A DNA stretch of 62,790 nt from Alphaproteobacteria bacterium (GTDB taxonomy: Bacteria; Pseudomonadota; Alphaproteobacteria; JABAAW01): contig JABACB010000002.1 in NCBI GenBank assembly GCA_014237925.1, positions 62,028 through 124,817 on the forward strand, given 5' to 3'. The notes below the pieces were generated by a model. It did no database searches. It saw only the letters and a program-made list of their open reading frames with translations, and had not been told where the DNA came from. The position numbers and the translations under genes are program-made. Positions 7,069-62,790 of the stretch are shown here, piece after piece. Position 1 is the stretch's first letter. The number at the start of each line of letters is the position of its first letter.

Positions 7069-7511
7069 CGCGCTTGCTCGCCTACGACGAAGACGGCGCG
7101 TTCCAAAATTTCTTCGAAGGTGAGTTCGCTTCGCGTGGAGACGACGCGGTCGCCGCTTTGCAGGGCGGTCGCCTCTTTGCCTGGAATCACGCTGAGGTAG
7201 GCTTCGCCCAGCAGCAGGGGGCTTTGTGCGACCAGCGTGCTGTCGAAGGGCAGGCGCAGCGAGTCTTTGAGGGTGAGGGTGACGACAGCCTCGAAGACGA
7301 TCGGGTCGATATGGACGCGTACAACCTTTCCGACAACGACGCCGTTCAGGCGCACTTCGCTACCGCGCACGATGCCGCGGCTGGAGGGAAAGTGTGCCGT
7401 GAGGGTTTGGTCGCCTTCGTGCGATTCTTCGCCCAAAGCGTAGAGGAAGAAGCCCGTCGCGCAGGCGAGGGCGACGGTGCCTGCGATCAGTTCAAACCAG
7501 CTGTGTTTCAT
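7065..7511 (-). CDS. mlaD: MlaD/MCE family protein
   Basis: N-terminal TM, GIVRGSEVRLNGVVVGKV, LLGEAYLSVIPG. Confidence 0.9.
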   Translation of the reverse strand: MKHSWFELIAGTVALACATGFFLYALGEESHEGDQTLTAHFPSSRGIVRGSEVRLNGVVVGKVVRVHIDPIVFEAVVTLTLKDSLRLPFDSTLVAQSPLLLGEAYLSVIPGKEATALQSGDRVVSTRSELTFEEILERAVFVVGEQAR

Positions 7512-8053
7512 TGTTCTCTGGCGGGGGTTTTTTGGGGGGAAGCGGCTTTTTGCGAGATGTTGCGTTCTGCGCGTTCGACGATCGTTGTGATCAGTCGGGG
7601 CAGTTCGATGGGTTCGCGCGTAAAGGAGAAGAAGTCGCCTTCTTGCAGGGATTGTTCTTCGCCGCCCGGCAAGATGACGAGTACCATGCTTCCGGAGAGG
7701 TCTTGGGCGCGGATGACGGCGGAGCTGTCAGAAGGAATTTCGAGGCTGTTGTCGACGGCGAGTTGCACGCGTACGTTTAGCGAGGGTTTTTGCAGCGAGA
7801 CTTTCGTGACTTTTCCGATGGCAACCCCTCCGAGGGTTATGGGGTTTCCTGGGCGCAGTCCTTGTATTTTGAGGAAGTCGGCGAACAAAGTAATGGATCG
7901 GTTGGCGGCATCGGTTCTGTCGGCGCGGTAGGAGTGGGCGAGCAGCAGCGCGAAGGCGAGGAGGGTGACGGCTCCGTAGAGGCGGTGTCGGATGCGCTGT
8001 CGTTTTGCAAGCGTGGCGGCTGCGGAGTGTTGCGGGGGGCTTGGGTTTGTCAC
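7508..8053 (-). CDS. Second MlaD/MCE family protein
   Basis: QGLRPGNPITLGGVAIGKV, IPSDSSAVI, ILPGG. Start set at in-frame GTG 8053. Confidence 0.8.
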   Translation of the reverse strand: MTNPSPPQHSAAATLAKRQRIRHRLYGAVTLLAFALLLAHSYRADRTDAANRSITLFADFLKIQGLRPGNPITLGGVAIGKVTKVSLQKPSLNVRVQLAVDNSLEIPSDSSAVIRAQDLSGSMVLVILPGGEEQSLQEGDFFSFTREPIELPRLITTIVERAERNISQKAASPQKTPAREQ

Positions 8054-8102
8054 AAGGCGGAAACAGAGGTTTGCGTTAGGGGCTGGCGTTAGGGGTTTGG
8101 CG

Positions 8103-8456
8103 TTAAGGGGAGGAGGGGGGAGACCAGGCTTGGTAGGGTTTGGGGGGTTGGTGTCTTTTGGGAGAGACGGCTTGGGGGGTTCCCGTGGGATTGGGGTTAT
8201 GGGGTTTTTGCCAGGCGTGTCGGAGGCGGGGGGCAGAGGATTGGTTGGGGGGGGTCTTGGTGGTGTGATGAATCCAGGCGTGCCAGGCGGCGGGGATGGC
8301 GCTGGCATCTTCGTTTTTTTTGTTGTAGACGACCCATCGGCGGGGGTGGCGGGGATTTTTTGGGGATTTTTCTTCAAAGTAGCGGTTGTTCAGAGAGTCG
8401 CGTCCGACGGGGCGACCGTGCAGGAGGGTTTGGAGAAGGATTGCGGCGGTAGGCAT
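8103..8456 (-). CDS. NADH:ubiquinone oxidoreductase subunit NDUFA12 family protein
   Basis: GRDSLNNRYF, RRWVVY, ASAIPAAWHAWIHHT, WQKPHNPNPTGT, YQAWSP. Confidence 0.92.
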   Translation of the reverse strand: MPTAAILLQTLLHGRPVGRDSLNNRYFEEKSPKNPRHPRRWVVYNKKNEDASAIPAAWHAWIHHTTKTPPNQSSAPRLRHAWQKPHNPNPTGTPQAVSPKRHQPPKPYQAWSPPSSP

Positions 8457-8603
8457 GGCGGAGAGTGTAGCAGAGTTTGCTCATAGAACGGGCTTTTTAC
8501 GGACAAAAAGGCGCTATGTCTGTTGCGCGCGCGCGCGATAGCGCTTTCTACGCACGAGTGCCTCGTTCCCGTTTGCGAAATCGGCGAGGAGATTAAAAAA
8601 AAT

Positions 8604-8612
8604 TGTGGATAA
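8604..8612. promoter_or_regulatory. Perfect DnaA box upstream of nrdJ
   Basis: TGTGGATAA, the reverse complement of TTATCCACA, in the divergent nrdJ/NDUFA12 spacer. Confidence 0.6.
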
Positions 8613-8678
8613 GAAAATGAGCCTCCAAAACGAGCTTATACTGCCTCTGGCTACTCACCTCCAACCCTTCCCTCTCCC

Positions 8679-11600
8679 TTGAAAATCCCCCGCCACTACA
8701 CGCGCGCAGGCGAAAGCCCCTACGCCCGCATCCCCTTCCACCGCGTCACCGCCTCTCTCCGCTCCGCCACAGGCGACCTCGTCTTCGAACAACACAAAGT
8801 CGAAGTGCCAAAAAAATGGTCGCAAACCGCAACCGACATCCTCGCGCAAAAATACTTCCGCAGAAAAGGCATCCCGCATTTCCTCAAACGCATCCCAGAG
8901 AAAGACATCCCCCGCTTCGCACAACGCTCCGCCCCAGACACACAAAAACTGCAAACCCTCCCCGACGAACAACGATACACAGGAGAAACGAGCGCCAAAC
9001 AAGTCTTCTCCCGCCTCGCCGGAACCTGGACATATTGGGGAGCGCGCAACGGATACTTCGATTCCGACGAAGACGCTCAAGCTTTCTGCGACGAGATGCA
9101 ATTCATGCTGGCTTGTCAGATCGCCTCGCCTAACTCGCCGCAATGGTTCAATACAGGGCTATTCTGGGCATACGGCATCGAAGGACCGCCGCAAGGACAC
9201 TGGTACATCGACGAACAGACGAAAACCCCCGCCCTCGCTCAAACAGCCTACGAACGCCCGCAACCCCACGCCTGCTTCATCCAGTCGGTCAAAGACGACC
9301 TTGTCGGCGAAAGCGGCATCATGGATCTGTGGGTGCGCGAAGCGCGGCTTTTCAAGTACGGATCGGGAACAGGTAGCAACTTCTCCGATCTGCGCGGCGA
9401 AAACGAACCCTTGTCTGGCGGCGGATACTCGTCAGGACTCATGTCGTTTCTCAAGATCGGCGACCGCGCCGCAGGTGCGATCAAATCGGGCGGAACAACC
9501 CGCCGCGCCGCCAAGATGGTCGTCGTCGATATCGATCACCCCGACATCGAAGAGTTCATCGATTGGAAAGTACAAGAAGAACAAAAAGTCGCCTCGCTCG
9601 TCGTCGGAGCTCAACGTTGCCAGCAACACCTCGACAATGTGCTGGACGCAGCGCACAGCGGCGACATCCCGAAAAAACAACGGCACTTTGAAGCAACGAA
9701 CCCCCTGCTCGCCACAGCTCTTTCGGCTGCCCGCAAAGACCGCGTTCCCGAATCGATCCTCGTCAAAGTCCTGCAGAAAGCCCGCCAAGGCGAACGCCGC
9801 ATTCCCTTCTCAACCTTCGATACAGACTGGCAGGGCAACGCCTATCTCACCGTCTCGGGACAAAACGCCAACAACAGCGTTCGCGTGAGCGAACGCTTCC
9901 TCCAAGCCGTCGAGAACGACAAACCCTGGCAGCTGACCCGACGCACCGACGGCAAAACACACAAAACCCTCGCCGCACGAACGCTGTGGAAAAAAATCGC
10001 CGACGCCGCTTGGGCAAGCGCAGACCCAGGCATCCAGTTCGATACCACCATCAACGAATGGCACACCTGCCCGAACTCAGGACGCATCAACGCATCCAAT
10101 CCTTGCTCCGAATACATGTTTCTCGACGATACGGCTTGCAACCTCGCCTCCCTCAACCTCTTGAAATTCTGCACCGACAAAGGATTCCTCACCGATGCCT
10201 TCGCACACGCAACACGCCTGTGGACATGCACGCTGGAAATATCGGTCGCCATGGCGCAGTTCCCCTCGCAAGCCATCGCACGCAACTCCTACGACTTTCG
10301 AACGCTCGGACTCGGATTCGCCAACTTGGGCGGAGCTCTCATGAGCTTCGGCGTTCCCTACGACAGCACCGAAGGCAGAAGCTTTTGCGCCGCCGTCAGC
10401 TCGCTCATGAGCGGAACAGCCTACGAGACAAGCGCAGAAATGGCGCGCGAACTCGGCGTTTTTGCGCGATTCGAAGAAAACAGAGAGCCCATGCTGCGCG
10501 TCATGCGAAACCACCGCCGCGCCGCGCACGGAGAGAAACAAGGCTACGAAGGGTTGAGCCGTCCTCCCGTCGCTTTCGAAAGCTTATCGTGCCGCGACAA
10601 CGTGCTCGCCGCCGCTGCGCAAAAAGTTTGGGATCGCGTTCTCGAGAAAGGCGAGCAGCACGGTTTTCGCAACGCCCAAGTCAGCGTGATCGCACCGACA
10701 GGCACGATCGGTATCGTCATGGATTGTGCAACAACGGGAATCGAACCCGATTTCGCGCTCGTCAAAATGAAAAAACTCGCCGGCGGAGGAACGCTCAAGA
10801 TCGTCAATCCCACCCTCTCCGCAGCTCTGCAATCGCTCGGATACGACGAAGAAAGCACGCGCGCCATCGAACAAGCCGTTGCAGGCAGCGGCAAGCTCTC
10901 TTCGAACGAAAAAGGCGTGTCGCCAACAAAACCGTCGCGCGCAAAACCGTCGCGCGCAAAGCTGTCGCAGGAAAAACTGGAGCATGCAGGGCTTTCGAAA
11001 GAAGCCGTCAAAGCCGTCGAGCAAGCCTTGAAAAACGCCTTCCACATTCGCAACGCCTTCACGCCGCACACGCTGGGCGCGAAAGACTTCCAACGCCTTG
11101 TGGCGCGCAACGGCGATGTACTGGCGGCGCTCGGGCTTGACGCGCAAGAGATCGCGGACGCCAACACCGAGATTTGCGGAAGGCTCACCGTCGAAGGAGC
11201 GCCCTTGCTGAAAGACGAACATCTCGCCGTCTTCGACTGCGCAACGCCCTGCGGCGTCGAAGGGAAACGCAGCCTCTCCTGCGAAAGCCACCTTCGCATG
11301 ATGGCAGCAGCCCAACCCTTTGTATCGGGCGCTATCTCGAAGACCGTCAACATGCCGTACCACGCCACGCTCGAAGACTGCCAACACGCTTTCGAAACCT
11401 CGTGGAAGCTGGGGCTCAAAGCCAACGCGCTCTACCGCGACGGCTCGAAGCTTTCGCAGCCCATGACAACTTCTTCGCTCGGCGAAAGGGAAGCAGAGCC
11501 CGTAGCCGAGACGCAGGCGCAGATCCACAACCTCGCCGAGAAGCTCGCGCTCAACCTCTTCGAGCGTTACAAGAGGGCGCTGGAGGAAGAGCGGCAAGGA

Positions 11601-41426: not shown

Positions 41427-42290
41427 ATGCTCACCCCGAACGCTGTGCAAACATTGGAGCGAACATTGGAGCGAAAGCGATTCGCCGCCCTCGATGCCCT
41501 GTGCTACGGCGGAACGAAGACGCCGCCCTCGTCTCCGCCATCTTCCCTTCTCGTCGTCTTTCACGGCTACGGGGCGACGGCAGAAGACTTGCTCCCTCTT
41601 GCCCCCTCGTTTGCGCACGCCATGCCTGAGACGGTGCAAGTCTTTCTGCAAGCGCCCGAGCCTTGCTTGGCAGGCGGGCTTGCCACAGGACGCGCGTGGT
41701 TTCCGTTGCAGCTCTTGTCTTACGAAGAGATCGTTTCAGGGCTGCAGGCGGTCGAAGGTTCTGTCGCAGAGGCGCTGGACAAGATCGGCAAGCACTATGG
41801 TGTCTCTTCCCGTCGTATCGCTCTGTTCGGCTTCAGTCAGGGCGGCATGGTCGCCTTGCAAGCTGCGTGCAACGCAGGGCATGCCTGGCTTGCAACCGTC
41901 GGCGTGGCGACGCGATTCGTCGAGCCGTGCGATATGAAAACAAGCGCGCCCAACAAAGGCACGCCCCTGATGATGATCCACGGCGAAGACGACACCCTCG
42001 TGCCATTCCAGCAGGGCTTGAAGACAGCCTCCGCACTGCGTGAGAAGGGCTACGACATCGCATGGCTTGCACGACCAGGGATGGGACACGCCATCGACGA
42101 GACGGCATTGGAAAGCGCCTGCAACTTCTTGGGGACGCACGCGCGCAAGACGACAAAGGAGCAGACGCGAAAACAACAGACGCAAACAGAGAAAACACAA
42201 ACAGAGAGGACCCAAACGGAAATGACACGAGCAGAAATGACCCAAACGGAAATGACACAAGCGGAAACGACACGAGCGGAGGTCTTGTGA
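41427..42290 (+). CDS. Phospholipase/carboxylesterase (alpha/beta hydrolase)
   Basis: FHGYG, GFSQGG nucleophile elbow, HGEDD..VP, GMGHAI. Confidence 0.93.
   Translation: MLTPNAVQTLERTLERKRFAALDALCYGGTKTPPSSPPSSLLVVFHGYGATAEDLLPLAPSFAHAMPETVQVFLQAPEPCLAGGLATGRAWFPLQLLSYEEIVSGLQAVEGSVAEALDKIGKHYGVSSRRIALFGFSQGGMVALQAACNAGHAWLATVGVATRFVEPCDMKTSAPNKGTPLMMIHGEDDTLVPFQQGLKTASALREKGYDIAWLARPGMGHAIDETALESACNFLGTHARKTTKEQTRKQQTQTEKTQTERTQTEMTRAEMTQTEMTQAETTRAEVL
42180..42284. repeat. 15-bp tandem repeat x7 encoding a (TQTEM)n tail
   Basis: 15-bp period read directly. Confidence 0.9.
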
Positions 42291-43009
42291 GCGCAACATC
42301 AAGACAGGCGGGGGAGCTGCGACTGGTTTCCTTTGCGCCCGATGTCGCGCTTCACGCCGAAGGATCGTGCCTCGCCTCCTTCGGCAGAACGCGCGTCTTG
42401 TGTACTGCCAGCGTCGAGGATTCTGTTCCTTCGTTTCTGCGCGATCTCGGCGAGGGGTGGATCACGGCGGAATACTCCATGCTGCCGCGTGCAACGCACA
42501 GGCGCAACGCACGCGCGAAGACGCTAGCGGCGGGACGCACGATGGAGATACAACGTTTGATCGGACGCTCCTTGCGTTGTGTGACCGATCGCAGCCTTTT
42601 TGCCAATCAGCAGATCAGGATCGATTGCGATGTGTTGGACGCCGACGGCGGAACGCGTACCGCAGCACTCAGCGGTGCTTGCGTCGCTTTGAGCATCGCT
42701 TTCAGAAGGTTGCAAGCGTTGGGGGCGATCGACCGAAACCCTCTGTTGAAGCTGGTGGCGGGCGTCTCCTGTGTACTCAAGCAGGACGGCAGCCTGCAGA
42801 TCGATCCTACCTATCGTCAAGATTCGCAAGCTTTCGCCGATGCCAACTTCGCCGTCACCGAGGAGGGCGAGCTGGTCGAGGTGCAAATGGCGGCGGAGCG
42901 CAGCCCTGTCTCACGGCAAACCCTTGAGAAGATGCTCGACTTGGCACGCGACGCCGCGAACGCGATCACGCGTCTGCAGCGTGCGGCAATCGAAGCCGCG
43001 CAAAAATAA
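42287..43009 (+). CDS. rph: Ribonuclease PH
   Basis: GWITAEYSMLPRAT, EIQRLIGRSLR, DCDVLDADGGTRTA; GTGA overlap. Confidence 0.96.
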   Translation: MSATSRQAGELRLVSFAPDVALHAEGSCLASFGRTRVLCTASVEDSVPSFLRDLGEGWITAEYSMLPRATHRRNARAKTLAAGRTMEIQRLIGRSLRCVTDRSLFANQQIRIDCDVLDADGGTRTAALSGACVALSIAFRRLQALGAIDRNPLLKLVAGVSCVLKQDGSLQIDPTYRQDSQAFADANFAVTEEGELVEVQMAAERSPVSRQTLEKMLDLARDAANAITRLQRAAIEAAQK

Positions 43010-43102
43010 ACGAAGAATAAACGAAGAATACAAGAAGGGTAGAGAAGAAGGATAGAAGCCGAACTGAGGGGCTGGTGAGGGCTCTCGTTACGCTCGTGTC
43101 GT

Positions 43103-43819
43103 ATGCAAGGATGGTTTTACGAAAAGGGGGGGAAGTCGCAGCTGGTGATCGCAACGGGCAACCGAGGAAAATTTGTCGAGATCGCAGACTTGCTGAAGCC
43201 CTTTGTTTCCGACATCCGCCCTTGGAACGCGTTCGGCGTAGCGAAGGTGGAGGAGACGGGCGCAACCTACGCCGAGAACGCTCTGATCAAAGCGCGTGCT
43301 GCCTTCCAGCGTAGCGGACGGGCAAGGGGATTTGCCACTCTTGCCGACGATTCGGGGTTCGAGGTCGAAGCGCTGGACGGGAAACCAGGCTTGCTTTCGG
43401 CAAGATGGGCGGAGGGGCAAGATCAGGAGCAGGAGCAGGAGCAGGATCAGGAGCAGGAGCAGGGGGGGAATAATGGCACGCGCGACTTTGCGCGTGCTAT
43501 CGAGCGCGTTCGATGTGAGATGCTAGCGCGCTCGTATAAAGAATCGTCTGCACGGTTCGTTTGTGCGCTTGCGCTTGTGCGCAGCGACGGTGCGGAGCGT
43601 GTTGTCGAGGGCGAGGTGCAGGGAAGGGTTGTTTTTCCACCGCGCGGCGGGCGGGGATTTGGCTATGACCCTATTTTCGTGCCTTTCGTTACGGGGGACG
43701 ACCGAACTTTCGGCGAGATGGAGCGCGAAGAGAAGCAATGTATTAGTCATCGTGCGCAGGCTTTTCGTCGTTTGGGCGAAGATTGTTTTGCGCAAGAGAT
43801 CCGTCAGGAGATTGGCTAA
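43103..43819 (+). CDS. rdgB: Non-canonical purine NTP pyrophosphatase with a (QE)n insert
   Basis: ATGNRGK, ENALIKA, ADDSG, GFGYDP, SHRAQA. Confidence 0.96.
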   Translation: MQGWFYEKGGKSQLVIATGNRGKFVEIADLLKPFVSDIRPWNAFGVAKVEETGATYAENALIKARAAFQRSGRARGFATLADDSGFEVEALDGKPGLLSARWAEGQDQEQEQEQDQEQEQGGNNGTRDFARAIERVRCEMLARSYKESSARFVCALALVRSDGAERVVEGEVQGRVVFPPRGGRGFGYDPIFVPFVTGDDRTFGEMEREEKQCISHRAQAFRRLGEDCFAQEIRQEIG

Positions 43820-44003
43820 AAAATCTGCCGAAAGATTTGCCGAAAACCACGCGCTCGCTACGGGATTTTGCGCGAGGAAACTTCCCGCATCCCCCCGCAC
43901 TCTCCATGCGTGCGCGACAACCTCTTTCCGTCCTTAACAATCCCTTTGCTTGTTCGCAGTCTCTGTTTTCGCAAACCCATACGCAGCTCCCCAAAGCAAA
44001 ACG

Positions 44004-45257
44004 ATGCCTACTTCTTCTTCCACCTGCGCGCGCGACCTTTCGCTCTACATCCACTTCCCCTTCTGCGAACGGAAATGCCCCTATTGCGACTTCAACTCGC
44101 ACGAACGCACCACCATTCCCGAAGACGCCTATGTCGACGCTGTCTTGTGGCGTTTGCAAAACCTCAGCCGCGACCGAACGATACAAAGCGGTAAGTGCCT
44201 TGTGCGCTCGATCTTCTTCGGCGGCGGCACGCCCTCGCTCCTCTCGCCACACGCCGTAGGCAATATCCTCGAAGGCGCGGACAAAAACTTTCGCATCGCG
44301 CAAGACTGCGAAATCACCCTGGAGGCGAATCCTTCCAGCGCGGAAAAAAACAAGTTCGCCGAATGGAAAAAGGCGGGTGTCAATCGTGTCTCGCTCGGCG
44401 TGCAGTCCTTCGACGACAACGCGTTGCGTTTCTTGGGAAGACTCCACGACGCACGACAGGCGCGCGCCGCGCTCGAGCGAGCCGCCAGCCTGTTTGCGCG
44501 CTTCTCCTTCGACCTCATCACAGCTCTGCCACAACAAAGCGACGAGGCGGTCAAGCGCGAGCTCGCTTGCGCCGCACGCTTTGGCGCAGAGCATCTTTGC
44601 GTCTATCAACTGACGATCGAAAAAGCGACCGCCTTCTATCGTGCCGAAGCCAACGGCTTGCTCACCTTGCCCTCGCAGGCGCACGCAGCGCGCCTCTATC
44701 GGCTTGTCGAACAAGAGCTGGCGGCGCAAGGCTACGCCAGCTACGAAATCTCCAGCCACGCCCTCGGCATCGCGTCGCAATCGCGTCACAACCTCGTCTA
44801 TTGGCGGAGCGGCGACTGGCTGGGAATAGGACCAGGGGCGCACGGACGCATCACGCGCTCAAAGCGAAGCATCGCAACTCGAATCGCAACTTTGGAGACG
44901 CGCGACCCCGACCGATGGCTCAAGCAAGCGCAGGCAAGAGACGGACGCATCGAAAAACGCATCCTCCTCTCGCCAGAAGAGGCAGCGCAAGAGCGCGTGA
45001 TGATGGGACTGCGCCTCAAGGAAGGCGTGCCGCTCGCGTTGTTCGACGAAACGAAACAAGCGCGCATCGTCGATCTGTGCAAGGCGGGCTATTGTGAAAA
45101 AACTTTGCTACGACTAAACTTGACGACAGAAGGAAGTTTGCGACTCGATTCGATCGTAGCCTGTCTGCTCGCCGACAGCGCGTCTCTCTACCAAGAGACG
45201 CCGACAGTCGAAAAGGCTGACAGCTTCAAGCCGAACGAACGCGAGAACGAACATTGA
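44004..45257 (+). CDS. hemW: Radical SAM heme chaperone (start 44004 or TTG 43950)
   Basis: YIHFPFCERKCPYCDFNS, FFGGGTPS, NRVSLGVQS, HNLVYW. Confidence 0.95.
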   Translation: MPTSSSTCARDLSLYIHFPFCERKCPYCDFNSHERTTIPEDAYVDAVLWRLQNLSRDRTIQSGKCLVRSIFFGGGTPSLLSPHAVGNILEGADKNFRIAQDCEITLEANPSSAEKNKFAEWKKAGVNRVSLGVQSFDDNALRFLGRLHDARQARAALERAASLFARFSFDLITALPQQSDEAVKRELACAARFGAEHLCVYQLTIEKATAFYRAEANGLLTLPSQAHAARLYRLVEQELAAQGYASYEISSHALGIASQSRHNLVYWRSGDWLGIGPGAHGRITRSKRSIATRIATLETRDPDRWLKQAQARDGRIEKRILLSPEEAAQERVMMGLRLKEGVPLALFDETKQARIVDLCKAGYCEKTLLRLNLTTEGSLRLDSIVACLLADSASLYQETPTVEKADSFKPNERENEH

Positions 45258-45275: not shown

Positions 45276-45887
45276 ATGTCGCAGCATCAGTCCGTACCCC
45301 AGCCCTCCGTATCTCAGCCCTCTGCATCTCAGTCCTCCATGGATCAACCTGAGAGTTTGCAGCCTGTCGAGGACAGATCGCTTTGCGCGCAGGGCAGAAG
45401 CGTCTTCGAGCATGCCGACCTTGTCGAGTGCGGGATGGGAAAGCTTTTCGGCAAGGGCAACGCGCAGCTGCCGTTGGCGCCGATGCTGATGTTCGAGCGA
45501 ATCTCCGATATTTCCGACAAGGGCGGAAAGTTCGCGCACGGCGCGGTCGCGGCGGAGATGACGATCTCCTCCGACATGTGGTTTTTCGCCTGCCACTTCT
45601 ACAAGGATGCCGTCATGCCGGGGTGCCTCGGGCTCGACGCACTGTGGCAGCTGCTGGGATTCCACCTCGCATGGCTCGGACACAAGGGCAGAGGCAGAGC
45701 CTTGGGCGTCGAGGGCATTCGATTTCGAGAACAAGTCTTGCCCTCGACAACACTAGTCTCCTACCAATTGCACATCAGGCGCATCATTAGCGGCAGGCTG
45801 GTCATGGGCATCGCCGACGGCGTGTTGCAAGCCGACGGCGTCGTGTCGCTCACGGCGAAGGGCTTGCGCGTAGGATTGTTCCACTGA
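45276..45887 (+). CDS. fabA: 3-hydroxyacyl-ACP dehydratase/isomerase
   Basis: [26 protein letters not shown]. Confidence 0.96.
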
Positions 45888-49011: not shown

Positions 49012-49120
49012 TAACGATGGAAACGCAAGATAGCAAGTCTCGTGCGTGTTTGTTGCGCGAGCGCGTGCTATCCAAAAAGCACGAGCGCGAGCGCAACATA
49101 TACGCCGTGTGGCAATTGAC
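49012..49120. repeat. Direct repeat copy 2 (~109 bp)
   Basis: See copy 1. Contains GATAGCA/TGCTATC and CTCGTGC/GCACGAG inverted pairs. Confidence 0.93.
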
Positions 49121-49129
49121 ACTGTTGTA

Positions 49130-49436
49130 GCGCGTTTCTGCGAAACGCGCCTGGAGCAGGAAGAGGCTGCGCGCTTGCGCGCAGTTTTTTGCGGGAAAAC
49201 TTCGTCCCCCCTCAGCCCCTCCGCGTGCGCTAGCGCACAGTTTTTTTGCGGGGGAACTTCGTCCCCCCACACCCCCCCGCGTGCGCTAGCGCACGCGACG
49301 CGCGACCGCCTTTTTGTCGCCCAAAGTCCCGTTCCTTGTCTTCTTCCTTGTCCTCCCCCCCGCGCGCGCTGACGCACGCGACGCGCGACCCGCCTTTTTG
49401 TCGCCCAAAGTCCCGTTCCTTGTCTTCTTCCTTGTC
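49130..49436. repeat. Hairpin array: 9-bp stem, 56-bp unit x2, ~83-bp unit x2, 20-bp perfect palindrome
   Basis: GCGCGTTTC-TGC-GAAACGCGC (49130-49150); GGGGGA-ACTTCG-TCCCCC; CGCGTGCGCTAGCGCACGCG (49278-49297). Confidence 0.92.
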
Positions 49437-61654: not shown

Positions 61655-62790
61655 TCACAAAGCGAGGTTGATGTTGGCGTTTTCCAGCGAGCGTTGAGAA
61701 AAAAGATAGCGTCCGCCCGTCATGAAGCCGAGCGCTCGCCAGTCGAGGCGGTTCAGTTCTTCGCAAATCTCTGCCAAGTTGTGAATCTTCTTTTTGGGGA
61801 AAAGCGCCAAGACCGAGCCGTCGAACGCTTCTGCCGTTGAGATGAAGAAAGGTTTTGTGATGCGTGTCTTGCCGTTGACATAGATTCGCGCGCCCTCGCG
61901 TTCGGGGTATTTTCTGCCCCATTGCCACCAGTTGTTTTCGTCGAATGCTCGTATGCGTCTTTGTAGCAGGGTTTGTTTGTGCGGGAGGAGGGCTCGGCTG
62001 AGCTTGTTGTAGATCATGCGTTTGAGATCGCCTGTGGTTCGCGTTTGCGAGCAGACGAAGTCTTGGTTTCCGTGTGGCGATTCGTAGATGTGGTCTGCTC
62101 CGCTGACGGCGCCCACTTTCACTTCGAAGGCGTCTCCCAGTCTGTGAGCGAGGTGCGCTTTTTTGGGGGAGAAGGTGAGTTGTCCTTCGTGGCAGAGGAA
62201 GGTTCTGCCGTCCGCCATGCGGGGTGAGGTTTTTCCTTTTTGGAAGCGCCATACGGCGCAGTTGGGAGTTGCGTTGTGGAAGAGTTTTGTATCGCCGTAG
62301 TCTTGGAAGTGGGTGATGGTTCCTGTTTTGTGTAGGTATTCATTGAGGTTTTTGGCGCTGGTGGCTTTGGTGAAGTCTCTGGGAGTGATGAAGATGAGTT
62401 CTCCGTTGTCGTTGAGGTGGAGGGTCGCTTTGTAGATGAAGAAGAGGTAGAGGTTCGTTCGGTTGTCGAAAAAGGTTGGAGAGGGGGAGGGTAAGGGAGA
62501 GGATGTTTTTTGGAGGGATTTCAGGAAGGCGGTAATTTTTGTGTGTGTTGTGGGGAGGATATCTTGGAAGCGGACATAGGGTGGATTTCCGATGATGGTA
62601 TCGAACTTTTGGGAGAGGGGATAATCGAAGAAGTCTGTGTTGATATGGTTGATATGGCGTGTGTTGCTGGAGTGATTAAGGGACGGGTCGATTTCTAGGG
62701 CTGTGATGGGGATATTTTGTGCGAGGGGGGAATGGAGGAAGATATTTTTGCCGCTTGCGGGTTCTAGGATTTGTCCGTGGTTGTGTTTGA
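61655..62790 (-). CDS. Amino-DNA methyltransferase, gamma order (NPPY), 5' end beyond the window
   Basis: Hand translation is open from 62788: ILEPASGKNIF..ALEID..TDFFDY..FDTIIGNPPYVRFQDI..NLYLFFI..GELIFITPRDF, continuing into ORF 61655..62218. Confidence 0.88.
   Translation of the reverse strand, partial: KHNHGQILEPASGKNIFLHSPLAQNIPITALEIDPSLNHSSNTRHINHINTDFFDYPLSQKFDTIIGNPPYVRFQDILPTTHTKITAFLKSLQKTSSPLPSPSPTFFDNRTNLYLFFIYKATLHLNDNGELIFITPRDFTKATSAKNLNEYLHKTGTITHFQDYGDTKLFHNATPNCAVWRFQKGKTSPRMADGRTFLCHEGQLTFSPKKAHLAHRLGDAFEVKVGAVSGADHIYESPHGNQDFVCSQTRTTGDLKRMIYNKLSRALLPHKQTLLQRRIRAFDENNWWQWGRKYPEREGARIYVNGKTRITKPFFISTAEAFDGSVLALFPKKKIHNLAEICEELNRLDWRALGFMTGGRYLFSQRSLENANINLAL

Follow-up and report, generated by a model that had tools for sequence, protein, structure and literature searches.

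A G/T-to-C/A strand flip between rdgB and hemW lies on a decayed multi-hairpin repeat in an alphaproteobacterial genome

The genes rdgB and hemW are co-oriented neighbours in the 62,790-nt stretch of alphaproteobacterial DNA analysed here (the window), and the composition of their shared strand changes from G/T-rich in the first to C/A-rich in the second. This flip is real and is located on a decayed hairpin-forming repeat. The site behind such flips is a multi-hairpin intergenic repeat, and there are hundreds of these sites, not one. The explanation that we consider best as a whole, at a probability of roughly 0.55, is that the rdgB-hemW flip marks a multi-hairpin repeat site, intact in a sister species and eroded here, at which transiently single-stranded DNA would be damaged. 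The window belongs to G000, a 409-contig draft genome of 1.97 Mb and 58% GC, within a genus set of seven genomes (G000-G006). G003 is a closed congener of 1.90 Mb, and comparisons with G004 cover 825 kb, half of that genome. Genes were taken as open reading frames (ORFs) with orthology support and not from a curated annotation.

The flip between rdgB and hemW

The genes and the spacer at the junction are as follows.

42290-43009, + strand: rph (RNase PH; NCBIfam TIGR01966, 264 bits), compositionally neutral, outer limit of the left skew domain
43103-43819, + strand: rdgB (XTP/dITP diphosphatase, RdgB/HAM1; NCBIfam TIGR00042, 147.8 bits), left flank of the flip
43820-44003: rdgB-hemW spacer, 184 nt, site of the polarity switch, C-rich from the rdgB stop codon onward
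43852-43910: relic of a decayed multi-hairpin repeat, a G-run/C-run hairpin eroded on its G side
44004-45257, + strand: hemW (radical-SAM haem chaperone; NCBIfam TIGR00539, 297 bits), right flank of the flip

The base counts given in an earlier note on this junction were reproduced (G27 C13 A6 T14 at 43561-43620; G9 C24 A12 T15 at 44041-44100), and the profile matches place rdgB and hemW on the + strand, as it had stated, along with rph. At codon position 3, rdgB contains G92 C57 A34 T56 (GC skew +0.235, AT skew -0.244) and hemW G107 C185 A81 T45 (GC skew -0.267, AT skew +0.286), a difference in G+T versus A+C with a chi2 of ~40 and p of ~2e-10 in a 2x2 test; the position-3 GC skew of rph is -0.024. 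Four-fold degenerate sites, which control for amino-acid composition, were scored with a skew index defined as (G+T-A-C)/N. It comes to +0.217 for rdgB (n=120) and -0.198 for hemW (n=227; chi2 ~13.6, p ~2e-4). The step persists at these sites, and amino-acid composition is therefore not its cause. The contrast between a G/T-rich rdgB and a C-rich 5' part of hemW thus holds at codon position 3 and at four-fold sites, and the loss of the step under amino-acid control, which the earlier note had named as a result that would overturn its reading, was not seen. Nor does every operon junction carry the same step, the other such result: gene ends without a nearby repeat element show no systematic skew in this genome (-0.012), and a step this large with this polarity is found at 2.6% of 612 co-oriented neighbour pairs. 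Because the step is rare among co-oriented pairs and absent at element-free gene ends, it is neither chance nor a general property of junctions.

The G+T richness of rdgB peaks in its 3' 500 nt, and the C+A richness of hemW occupies its 5' ~800 nt and weakens downstream. Measured over 200-nt intervals, GC skew is +0.30 at 43600-43799, -0.27 to -0.42 at 43800-44099 and ~0 by ~44800, and the switch in polarity falls within ~50 nt of the rdgB stop codon. The best local alignment of the relic to a library of elements from G003 scores 43; 30 shuffled spacers averaged 23.6 and did not exceed 30. No strong hairpin was found to survive in the 184-nt spacer of the window.

The step was seen in G000, G002, G003 and G004, and the index of the two genes in these genomes is as follows.

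G003: rdgB +0.74, hemW -0.46
G004: rdgB +0.63, hemW -0.43
G002: rdgB +0.35, hemW -0.44
G000 (the window): rdgB +0.22, hemW -0.20

It was not found in the distant congeners G001 and G006 or in the other alphaproteobacteria examined; G005 could not be scored, as a hemW fragment was all that was found of it. The gene order rph-rdgB-hemW is the ancestral one for alphaproteobacteria, in which, outside this group, the three genes are similarly skewed. The comparison with orthologues along rph-rdgB-hemW that the earlier note had proposed thus gave a stronger step in three congeners and similar skews across the genes in other alphaproteobacteria. The four-fold G:C ratio in the rdgB of the sister species reaches ~9:1. 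In BLAST searches the element consensus matched G000, G002, G003, G004 and G005 and gave no match in G001, G006 or eight further relatives; repeat and step co-occur in the same genomes. The rdgB-hemW spacer of G003 measures 465 nt and holds two intact element copies. Set against the +0.74/-0.46 beside the intact element in G003, the +0.22/-0.20 of the present genome would represent the fading imprint of a driver that has decayed.

Per-gene skew is correlated between species (r = 0.75), with four-fold sites 37% diverged and a median protein identity of 78% at a four-fold identity of 0.63. Conservation of skew between species was rejected as proof of a gene-intrinsic force, since shared ancestry suffices given the 37% four-fold divergence.

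The multi-hairpin repeat and its flanks

Per-gene four-fold skew in G000 has a standard deviation (SD) of 0.22, compared with 0.077 from sampling, and neighbouring genes are weakly correlated; the pattern is stronger in G003, where individual genes span indices of -0.9 to +0.9. Bins of 150 nt have an SD of 0.18 in G003 and 0.157 in G000, against a median of 0.086 and a maximum of 0.126 at 80 loci from other alphaproteobacteria, and bins with an absolute index >0.3 make up 10.5% of G003, 6.4% of G000 and 0.35% of the 80 loci. Four-fold GC skew reaches +0.79, the bias extends to all codon positions and the adjoining spacers, and the correlation of skew is lost within 1.5-2 kb, also inside long genes. 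A three-state hidden Markov model (HMM) divided G003 into 240 G+T-rich and 269 C+A-rich patches with a median length of ~600 nt, which together cover 18% of the genome.

These patches follow one another in a preferred order. A G+T patch is succeeded by a C+A patch within 600 nt 94 times in G003, and the reverse order occurs 27 times; the corresponding counts in G000 are 38 and 16. The asymmetry is invariant under reverse complementation, and flip polarity is therefore physical. Most flip midpoints (85%) lie in ORF-free DNA, and a neutral gap of 100-600 nt separates the paired patches. Gapless flips, with 0-100 nt between patches, occur in both polarities (30 and 20 in G003, 23 and 14 in G000); the element is almost never present at them, and some are located at T-runs or simple repeats.

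Two other sources of a compositional patchwork were considered and rejected. Gene-intrinsic codon bias or expression level is countered by the identity of the most skewed genes, which are ordinary low-expression housekeeping enzymes, by the involvement of spacers and all codon positions, and by the neutrality of the ribosomal operons. An assembly artefact is countered by the same pattern, with reading frames intact, in draft and closed or nearly closed assemblies of three species.

A modular, intergenic repeat is found in the gaps that separate paired patches. Its consensus is ~170-240 nt long and consists of a string of 4-6 different perfect hairpins, with a predicted single-strand folding energy of -46 to -60 kcal/mol per 150 nt (z -4.4 to -9.2); no Rfam family matched it. 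G003 contains 265-331 element loci with a median length of 159 nt. Of the G+T-to-C+A flips in that genome, 64 have a gap >100 nt, and 59 of these hold the element; among the 27 reverse flips one does. On the + strand of the 265 loci, the left 500 nt average +0.197 and the right 500 nt -0.212, compared with -0.006 and -0.007 at random positions, and 122 loci are skewed on both sides in the expected sense with none reversed. The flank profile is flat at ~0.2 to ~600 nt and falls to zero by ~2.2 kb (decay length ~640 nt). Element flanks are skewed in the same sense in G000 (+0.193 / -0.142) and in G004 (+0.192 / -0.219; 54 loci against 0).

The window contains three further features of this kind.

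8508-8561: partial element copy (54 BLAST high-scoring segment pairs, HSPs, from the G003 element library), at the centre of the strongest flip in the window
49044-49300: fuller element copy or copies (236 HSPs), with hairpins visible in the sequence, at a third flip (GC skew +0.08 then -0.16)
61931-62790: G+T-rich HMM patch at the right contig end, which fits an assembly break at another element copy

At the first of these the HMM places a G+T patch at 7502-8594 and a C+A patch at 8595-9002, with 1-kb GC skews of +0.40 then -0.18. The shared polarity of this site and the rdgB-hemW junction, on which the earlier note had remarked, is borne out: both flips run from G+T to C+A, one at an element and the other at its relic. 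Contig ends in G000 are C+A-rich on the left (-0.090) and G+T-rich on the right (+0.074), with the expected sign in 70%. The draft assembly probably breaks at element copies, and the element count in G000 is for that reason an underestimate.

The two flanks of an element are unequal, and their strength follows its orientation (+0.284 / -0.110 in one, +0.100 / -0.317 in the other). The more skewed flank is the one lying 5' of the element on the more stably folding strand (Spearman -0.58, p = 2e-24, n=256), a direction that had been predicted beforehand. Elements adjoin downstream gene ends about twice as often as upstream ends (231 vs 108 flanks), which accounts for the finding that about two thirds of strong patches are G+T-rich in the sense strand.

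The relation between element and skew was also followed between genomes. Skew in the expected direction over the proximal 600 nt of gene ends, sorted by presence of an element next to that end, is as follows.

Element in neither genome: G000 -0.012, G003 -0.018
Element in G003 only: G000 0.091, G003 0.249
Element in G000 only: G000 0.149, G003 0.143
Element in both genomes: G000 0.201, G003 0.309

Terminal-branch changes at four-fold sites were assigned on a tree that pairs G003 with G004 as sisters (four-fold identity 0.80) and takes G000 (0.62) as outgroup. Background substitutions are strand-symmetric, and those near elements are strongly asymmetric. On the G003 branch near elements, C>T occurs at.136 versus.021 for G>A, A>G at.096 versus.013 for T>C, C>G at.034 versus.004 for G>C, and A>T at.018 versus.004 for T>A, while the class-preserving transversions (C>A and G>T, A>C and T>G) are symmetric. 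On the strand that enters the repeat in the 5'->3' direction, the forward classes (C>T, A>G, C>G, A>T) show increases of up to ~5-fold; because the G000 branch is long, some changes are mis-polarised in a way that favours the effect, and a rough hand correction leaves ~2.3x forward and ~0.4x reverse. The combined rate of A/C-to-G/T change is 0.231 next to the element and ~0.10-0.13 at 1.2-1.6 kb, compared with a background of ~0.048. The implied equilibrium index near elements is +0.74 in G003 and +0.44 in G004, against 0.00 in the background. Where the element is present in G003 only, the drive is +0.67 in G003 versus +0.17 in G004 (chi2 ~17 on 50/23 vs 43/71), and where it is present in G004 only, +0.68 in G004 versus +0.38 in G003. 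The biased substitution process is still ongoing near elements. C>T is raised ~2-fold in all neighbour contexts with no strong sequence context, and a context-specific deaminase or methylation was rejected on this ground.

Candidate causes of the skew

The earlier note had argued that position relative to a site governs the bias, not the sense strand, and that the bias is not coupled to transcription. Gene orientation at element flanks upholds the first point genome-wide in G003: genes pointing toward the element give +0.255 / -0.288 and genes pointing away +0.216 / -0.199, with the expected sign in 89-94% of cases in every orientation class. The second is upheld by this common polarity and by the tuf and ribosomal-protein region, which carries an ordinary purine skew and none in G+T versus A+C. 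Transcription-coupled asymmetry, whether from ordinary gene transcription or from transcription running outward from promoters inside the element together with strand-specific repair, would fit the twofold preference of elements for positions downstream of genes (231 vs 108 flanks) and the enrichment of convergent junctions among flips (29 of 57). It is nevertheless very improbable, since polarity is identical for genes toward and away from the element and the tuf and ribosomal-protein operons show purine skew only; the sign does not follow the sense strand and the skew does not scale with expression, as it would in this form of asymmetry. Deamination of the non-template strand during outward transcription would yield the opposite sign.

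A replication origin or terminus, or the scar of an inversion in a genome that formerly had a strong replication skew, shares with the flips the G+T versus A+C axis, and the local polarity is terminus-like. We regard both as having next to no probability and count them as refuted. An origin and terminus would give one switch per polarity per replicon and a skew over whole replichores; G003 has 94 close G+T-to-C+A flips, and the hundreds of flips in 1.9 Mb each disappear within ~2 kb. Patches are evenly spread and equally frequent on both replichores, and the same two-sided flank polarity is found in all ten 200-kb segments of the G003 chromosome. Against an inversion scar stand the ancestral order of rph, rdgB and hemW and the changes of sign inside long genes. 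One-sided fork stalling was rejected as well, because both flanks are skewed in every 200-kb segment.

Replication skew in G003, whether global or cumulative, is weak, the positions of its origin and terminus are uncertain, and the hemW locus, at 1.60 Mb, lies off both turning points of the cumulative curve. Several features of this chromosome were noted separately. Negative GC skew is sustained over 180 kb at 720-900 kb (-0.06 to -0.165 per 20 kb), much stronger than elsewhere on the chromosome, and the density of C+A patches is highest at 700-800 kb (23%). If the origin is at ~1.69 Mb, as cumulative GC skew would place it, tuf (41474-42661, - strand) would be head-on to replication, and so would the ribosomal operons, which are assumed to flank it (region 30-46 kb); genes show no strand preference with that origin (545 co-oriented vs 574 head-on). 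This points to an origin at another position or else to an unusual polarity of replication.

Association with the element, a single polarity, independence of gene direction and chromosome position, decay with distance and continuing biased substitution are established by these data. The most probable reading is that, owing to the hairpin array, the strand that runs into the repeat is single-stranded for a time, either because synthesis stalls and leaves gaps or because breaks are resected. In this scheme the strand running 5'->3' into the repeat would gain G and T and lose C and A over ~2 kb on both sides. The array would expose that strand in single-stranded form, and damage specific to single-stranded bases (deamination of C and A, base loss) would give rise to C>T, A>G, C>G and A>T. 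The mirror-image bias of one polarity expected of single-stranded-DNA mutation domains, in which the 3'-ended strand is damaged, is found at 122 loci versus 0 in G003 and 54 versus 0 in G004. Strand displacement from a nick, an origin-like process or non-template deamination in outward transcription would produce the opposite polarity. By the favoured route, hairpins in the template strand would stall DNA synthesis, which would restart past the array and leave the template 5' of it gapped over up to one Okazaki or re-priming length. In a second route, of identical geometry, the element would suffer a two-ended break and AddAB would then resect 5'->3'.

The gap route is favoured over the break route because the inequality of the flanks follows element orientation, the stronger flank tracks hairpin stability, and SbcD was not found. 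The known hairpin nuclease SbcD was sought in all seven genus genomes and found in none, including G001 and G006, which have neither element nor flips; loss of SbcCD alone is therefore insufficient for the skew. The break route is retained because AddA, full-length in 7/7 genus genomes, and genes of the uracil-DNA glycosylase superfamily are present. As a self-standing explanation, recurrent two-ended breaks at the element, made by cleavage of a cruciform or hairpin or by a topoisomerase and resected on both sides by AddAB to leave 3' tails that are damaged or filled by error-prone repair synthesis, are possible and form the most serious competitor, at clearly lower odds. The polarity and the missing reverse order match single-switch mutation clusters in yeast exactly, the effect is two-sided in every chromosomal segment, the neutral gap of 100-600 nt between the two patches fits, and full-length AddA occurs throughout the genus. 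SbcD, on the other hand, was not found there, the difference between strong and weak sides that follows element orientation and strand-specific hairpin stability is not predicted, and the breaks are putative.

Several observations weigh against the explanation by hairpins and single-stranded damage. The rdgB-hemW spacers of G004 and G002 are short and without the element, yet the flip there is sharp and strong, which demands later loss of the element; it would have been lost from both spacers after the imprint was made. Some 30 gapless flips of the same polarity in G003 have no element. Reverse substitutions (G>A, T>C, G>C) occur at ~0.7x background next to the element and ~1x beyond 600 nt; pure single-strand damage does not predict such a deficit, which for that reason counts against it, and part of the deficit may be mis-polarisation from the long outgroup branch. 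When bacteria bypass a deaminated cytosine, C>G is not among the classical outcomes. The correlation between folding energy and flank strength is confounded with element orientation. The absence of SbcD weakens the break route, not the gap route. Single-stranded DNA, stalling and breaks are themselves inferred, from the genome sequences of an uncultured organism.

Some of these points would suit a passenger, an element that inserts at sites already prone to breaks or gaps and already skewed, and so marks them without being the cause. G004 and G002 flip at rdgB-hemW with an element-free spacer, orthologous empty sites are still weakly skewed (0.091 in G000, 0.143 in G003), and the ~30 gapless flips lack elements. 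We consider this unlikely: gene ends that are element-free in both genomes show no skew, current substitution bias is stronger in the lineage that holds the element, the stronger flank can be predicted from element orientation, and no transposase partner able to target such sites was found. In G003 no autonomous element bounded by terminal inverted repeats (TIRs) was found; a TIR-like module has 31 copies, no pair of which encloses 0.5-4 kb.

A bias of fixation, rather than of mutation, is less likely still. Here selection or biased heteroduplex repair would favour G+T-rich 3'-ended strands near a recombination hot spot. The preferential binding of GT-rich single-stranded DNA by RecA, the GT-rich composition of Chi, and the rise of all four A/C-to-G/T classes with a lowering of all four reverse classes and symmetric class-preserving transversions would agree with such a force. 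A preference of RecA for TGG/GT-rich DNA is on record (PMC3763553). It is chiefly the forward rate, however, that changes, with a ~5-fold increase that weakens away from the element; the reverse rate is lowered only to ~0.7x near the element and is ~1x beyond 600 nt, a deficit within reach of mis-polarisation; and selection would have to act per site in a lineage that tolerates heavy amino-acid change (78% median protein identity).

Implications and comparison with known systems

We tentatively propose, at somewhat less than even odds, that hairpin-array repeats are heritable local mutators and constitute a third source of bacterial strand asymmetry beside replication and transcription. If so, each copy would be a bidirectional ~4-kb domain of strand-asymmetric mutation. 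Codon positions 1 and 2 would be affected and the protein composition of neighbouring housekeeping genes would shift, a selfish or structural repeat thus directly reshaping the codon usage and amino-acid content of its neighbours. The decay profile would record, from sequence alone and in an uncultured organism, how the lengths of post-replication gaps or resection tracts are distributed in vivo, and the lineage would offer a natural system for the replication of structured DNA without SbcCD. Local skew flips in bacteria could then not be read solely as origins, termini, inversions or foreign DNA, and the skew would mislead gene finders as well as tests for horizontal transfer that rely on codon usage. 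The skew patchwork does degrade codon-based gene prediction. A codon-usage gene caller trained on G000 turned down the true rph frame in favour of an antisense ORF (42524-42886, - strand).

Short tandem repeats were noted at several places in and around the locus.

42179-42280: 15-nt unit, six copies, forming the C-terminal tail of an esterase
43005-43056: 11-13-nt tandem units in the rph-rdgB spacer
43413-43463: AGGAGC tandem array, 8.5 copies, inside rdgB (QEQEQ... insert)
45291-45338: 15-nt tandem unit at the 5' end of fabA

The runaway short tandem duplications of this lineage might share a cause with the flips, a replisome that copes badly with secondary structure. In G003 one strand carries all 87 copies of a 36-nt sequence, AGTGTAGCACAGAAGACTCCGTAGGGGAGCTATGAC, which together resemble a large array of clustered regularly interspaced short palindromic repeats (CRISPR).

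The element is most readily compared with the repetitive extragenic palindromic (REP) sequences, bacterial interspersed mosaic elements (BIMEs) and REP doublets (REPINs) of enterobacteria and pseudomonads (PMC3116915, PMC8266576). Like them it is short, intergenic, hairpin-forming and high in copy number, often lies downstream of genes, and occurs in both orientations and sometimes as inverted pairs; it therefore qualifies as a short extragenic palindromic repeat. It differs from them in carrying a string of 4-6 different hairpins per unit. The REP-associated tyrosine transposase (RAYT; Y1_Tnp, PF01797), which would complete the likeness, matched 0/7 genus genomes compared with 6/14 control genomes. 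TIRs shared with a transposase-bearing partner, as in a miniature inverted-repeat transposable element (MITE), were not found in G003. In the literature searched, no flanking strand-composition domains were found around REPs or other bacterial palindromic repeats, and the strand asymmetries described there were associated with replication, with transcription, with CpG islands in humans and with break repair in the laboratory.

The GC or keto skew of replication shares the G+T versus A+C axis and presumably the same chemistry, with the strand that is single-stranded for longer gaining G and T (reviewed in PMC3269012). It forms two domains per chromosome, whereas several hundred domains of ~4 kb are present here, with a far larger local amplitude and independently of the replichore. 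For transcription, Francino and Ochman reportedly observed an excess of C>T on the non-template strand of enterobacterial genes. That asymmetry has the same axis and the local scale of genes; the sign of the present one is independent of the sense strand.

The Escherichia coli chromosomal palindrome undergoes SbcCD-dependent breakage and RecA-dependent recombination repair (PMC3315005, PMC4125073), and is, as proposed here, a hairpin-forming sequence that acts as a site-specific, replication-dependent source of damage. It differs in being engineered, 246 bp long and described without a compositional consequence, and SbcD was not found in the present genus. The closest likeness in geometry is to break-induced clusters in yeast (Sakofsky et al. 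2019, PMC6786661), where 5'->3' resection on both sides of a break leaves mutated C's of the top strand on the left and mutated G's on the right, the reverse order being absent or very rare, and where transient single-stranded DNA is the cause. Those clusters are single events in laboratory yeast with an added deaminase or mutagen; the present bacterium presents an evolutionary steady state at hundreds of fixed, repeat-defined sites with no deaminase context signature. We found no bacterial description of such a system: strand asymmetry from exposure of single-stranded DNA is known, and its source, scale and geometry here are new.

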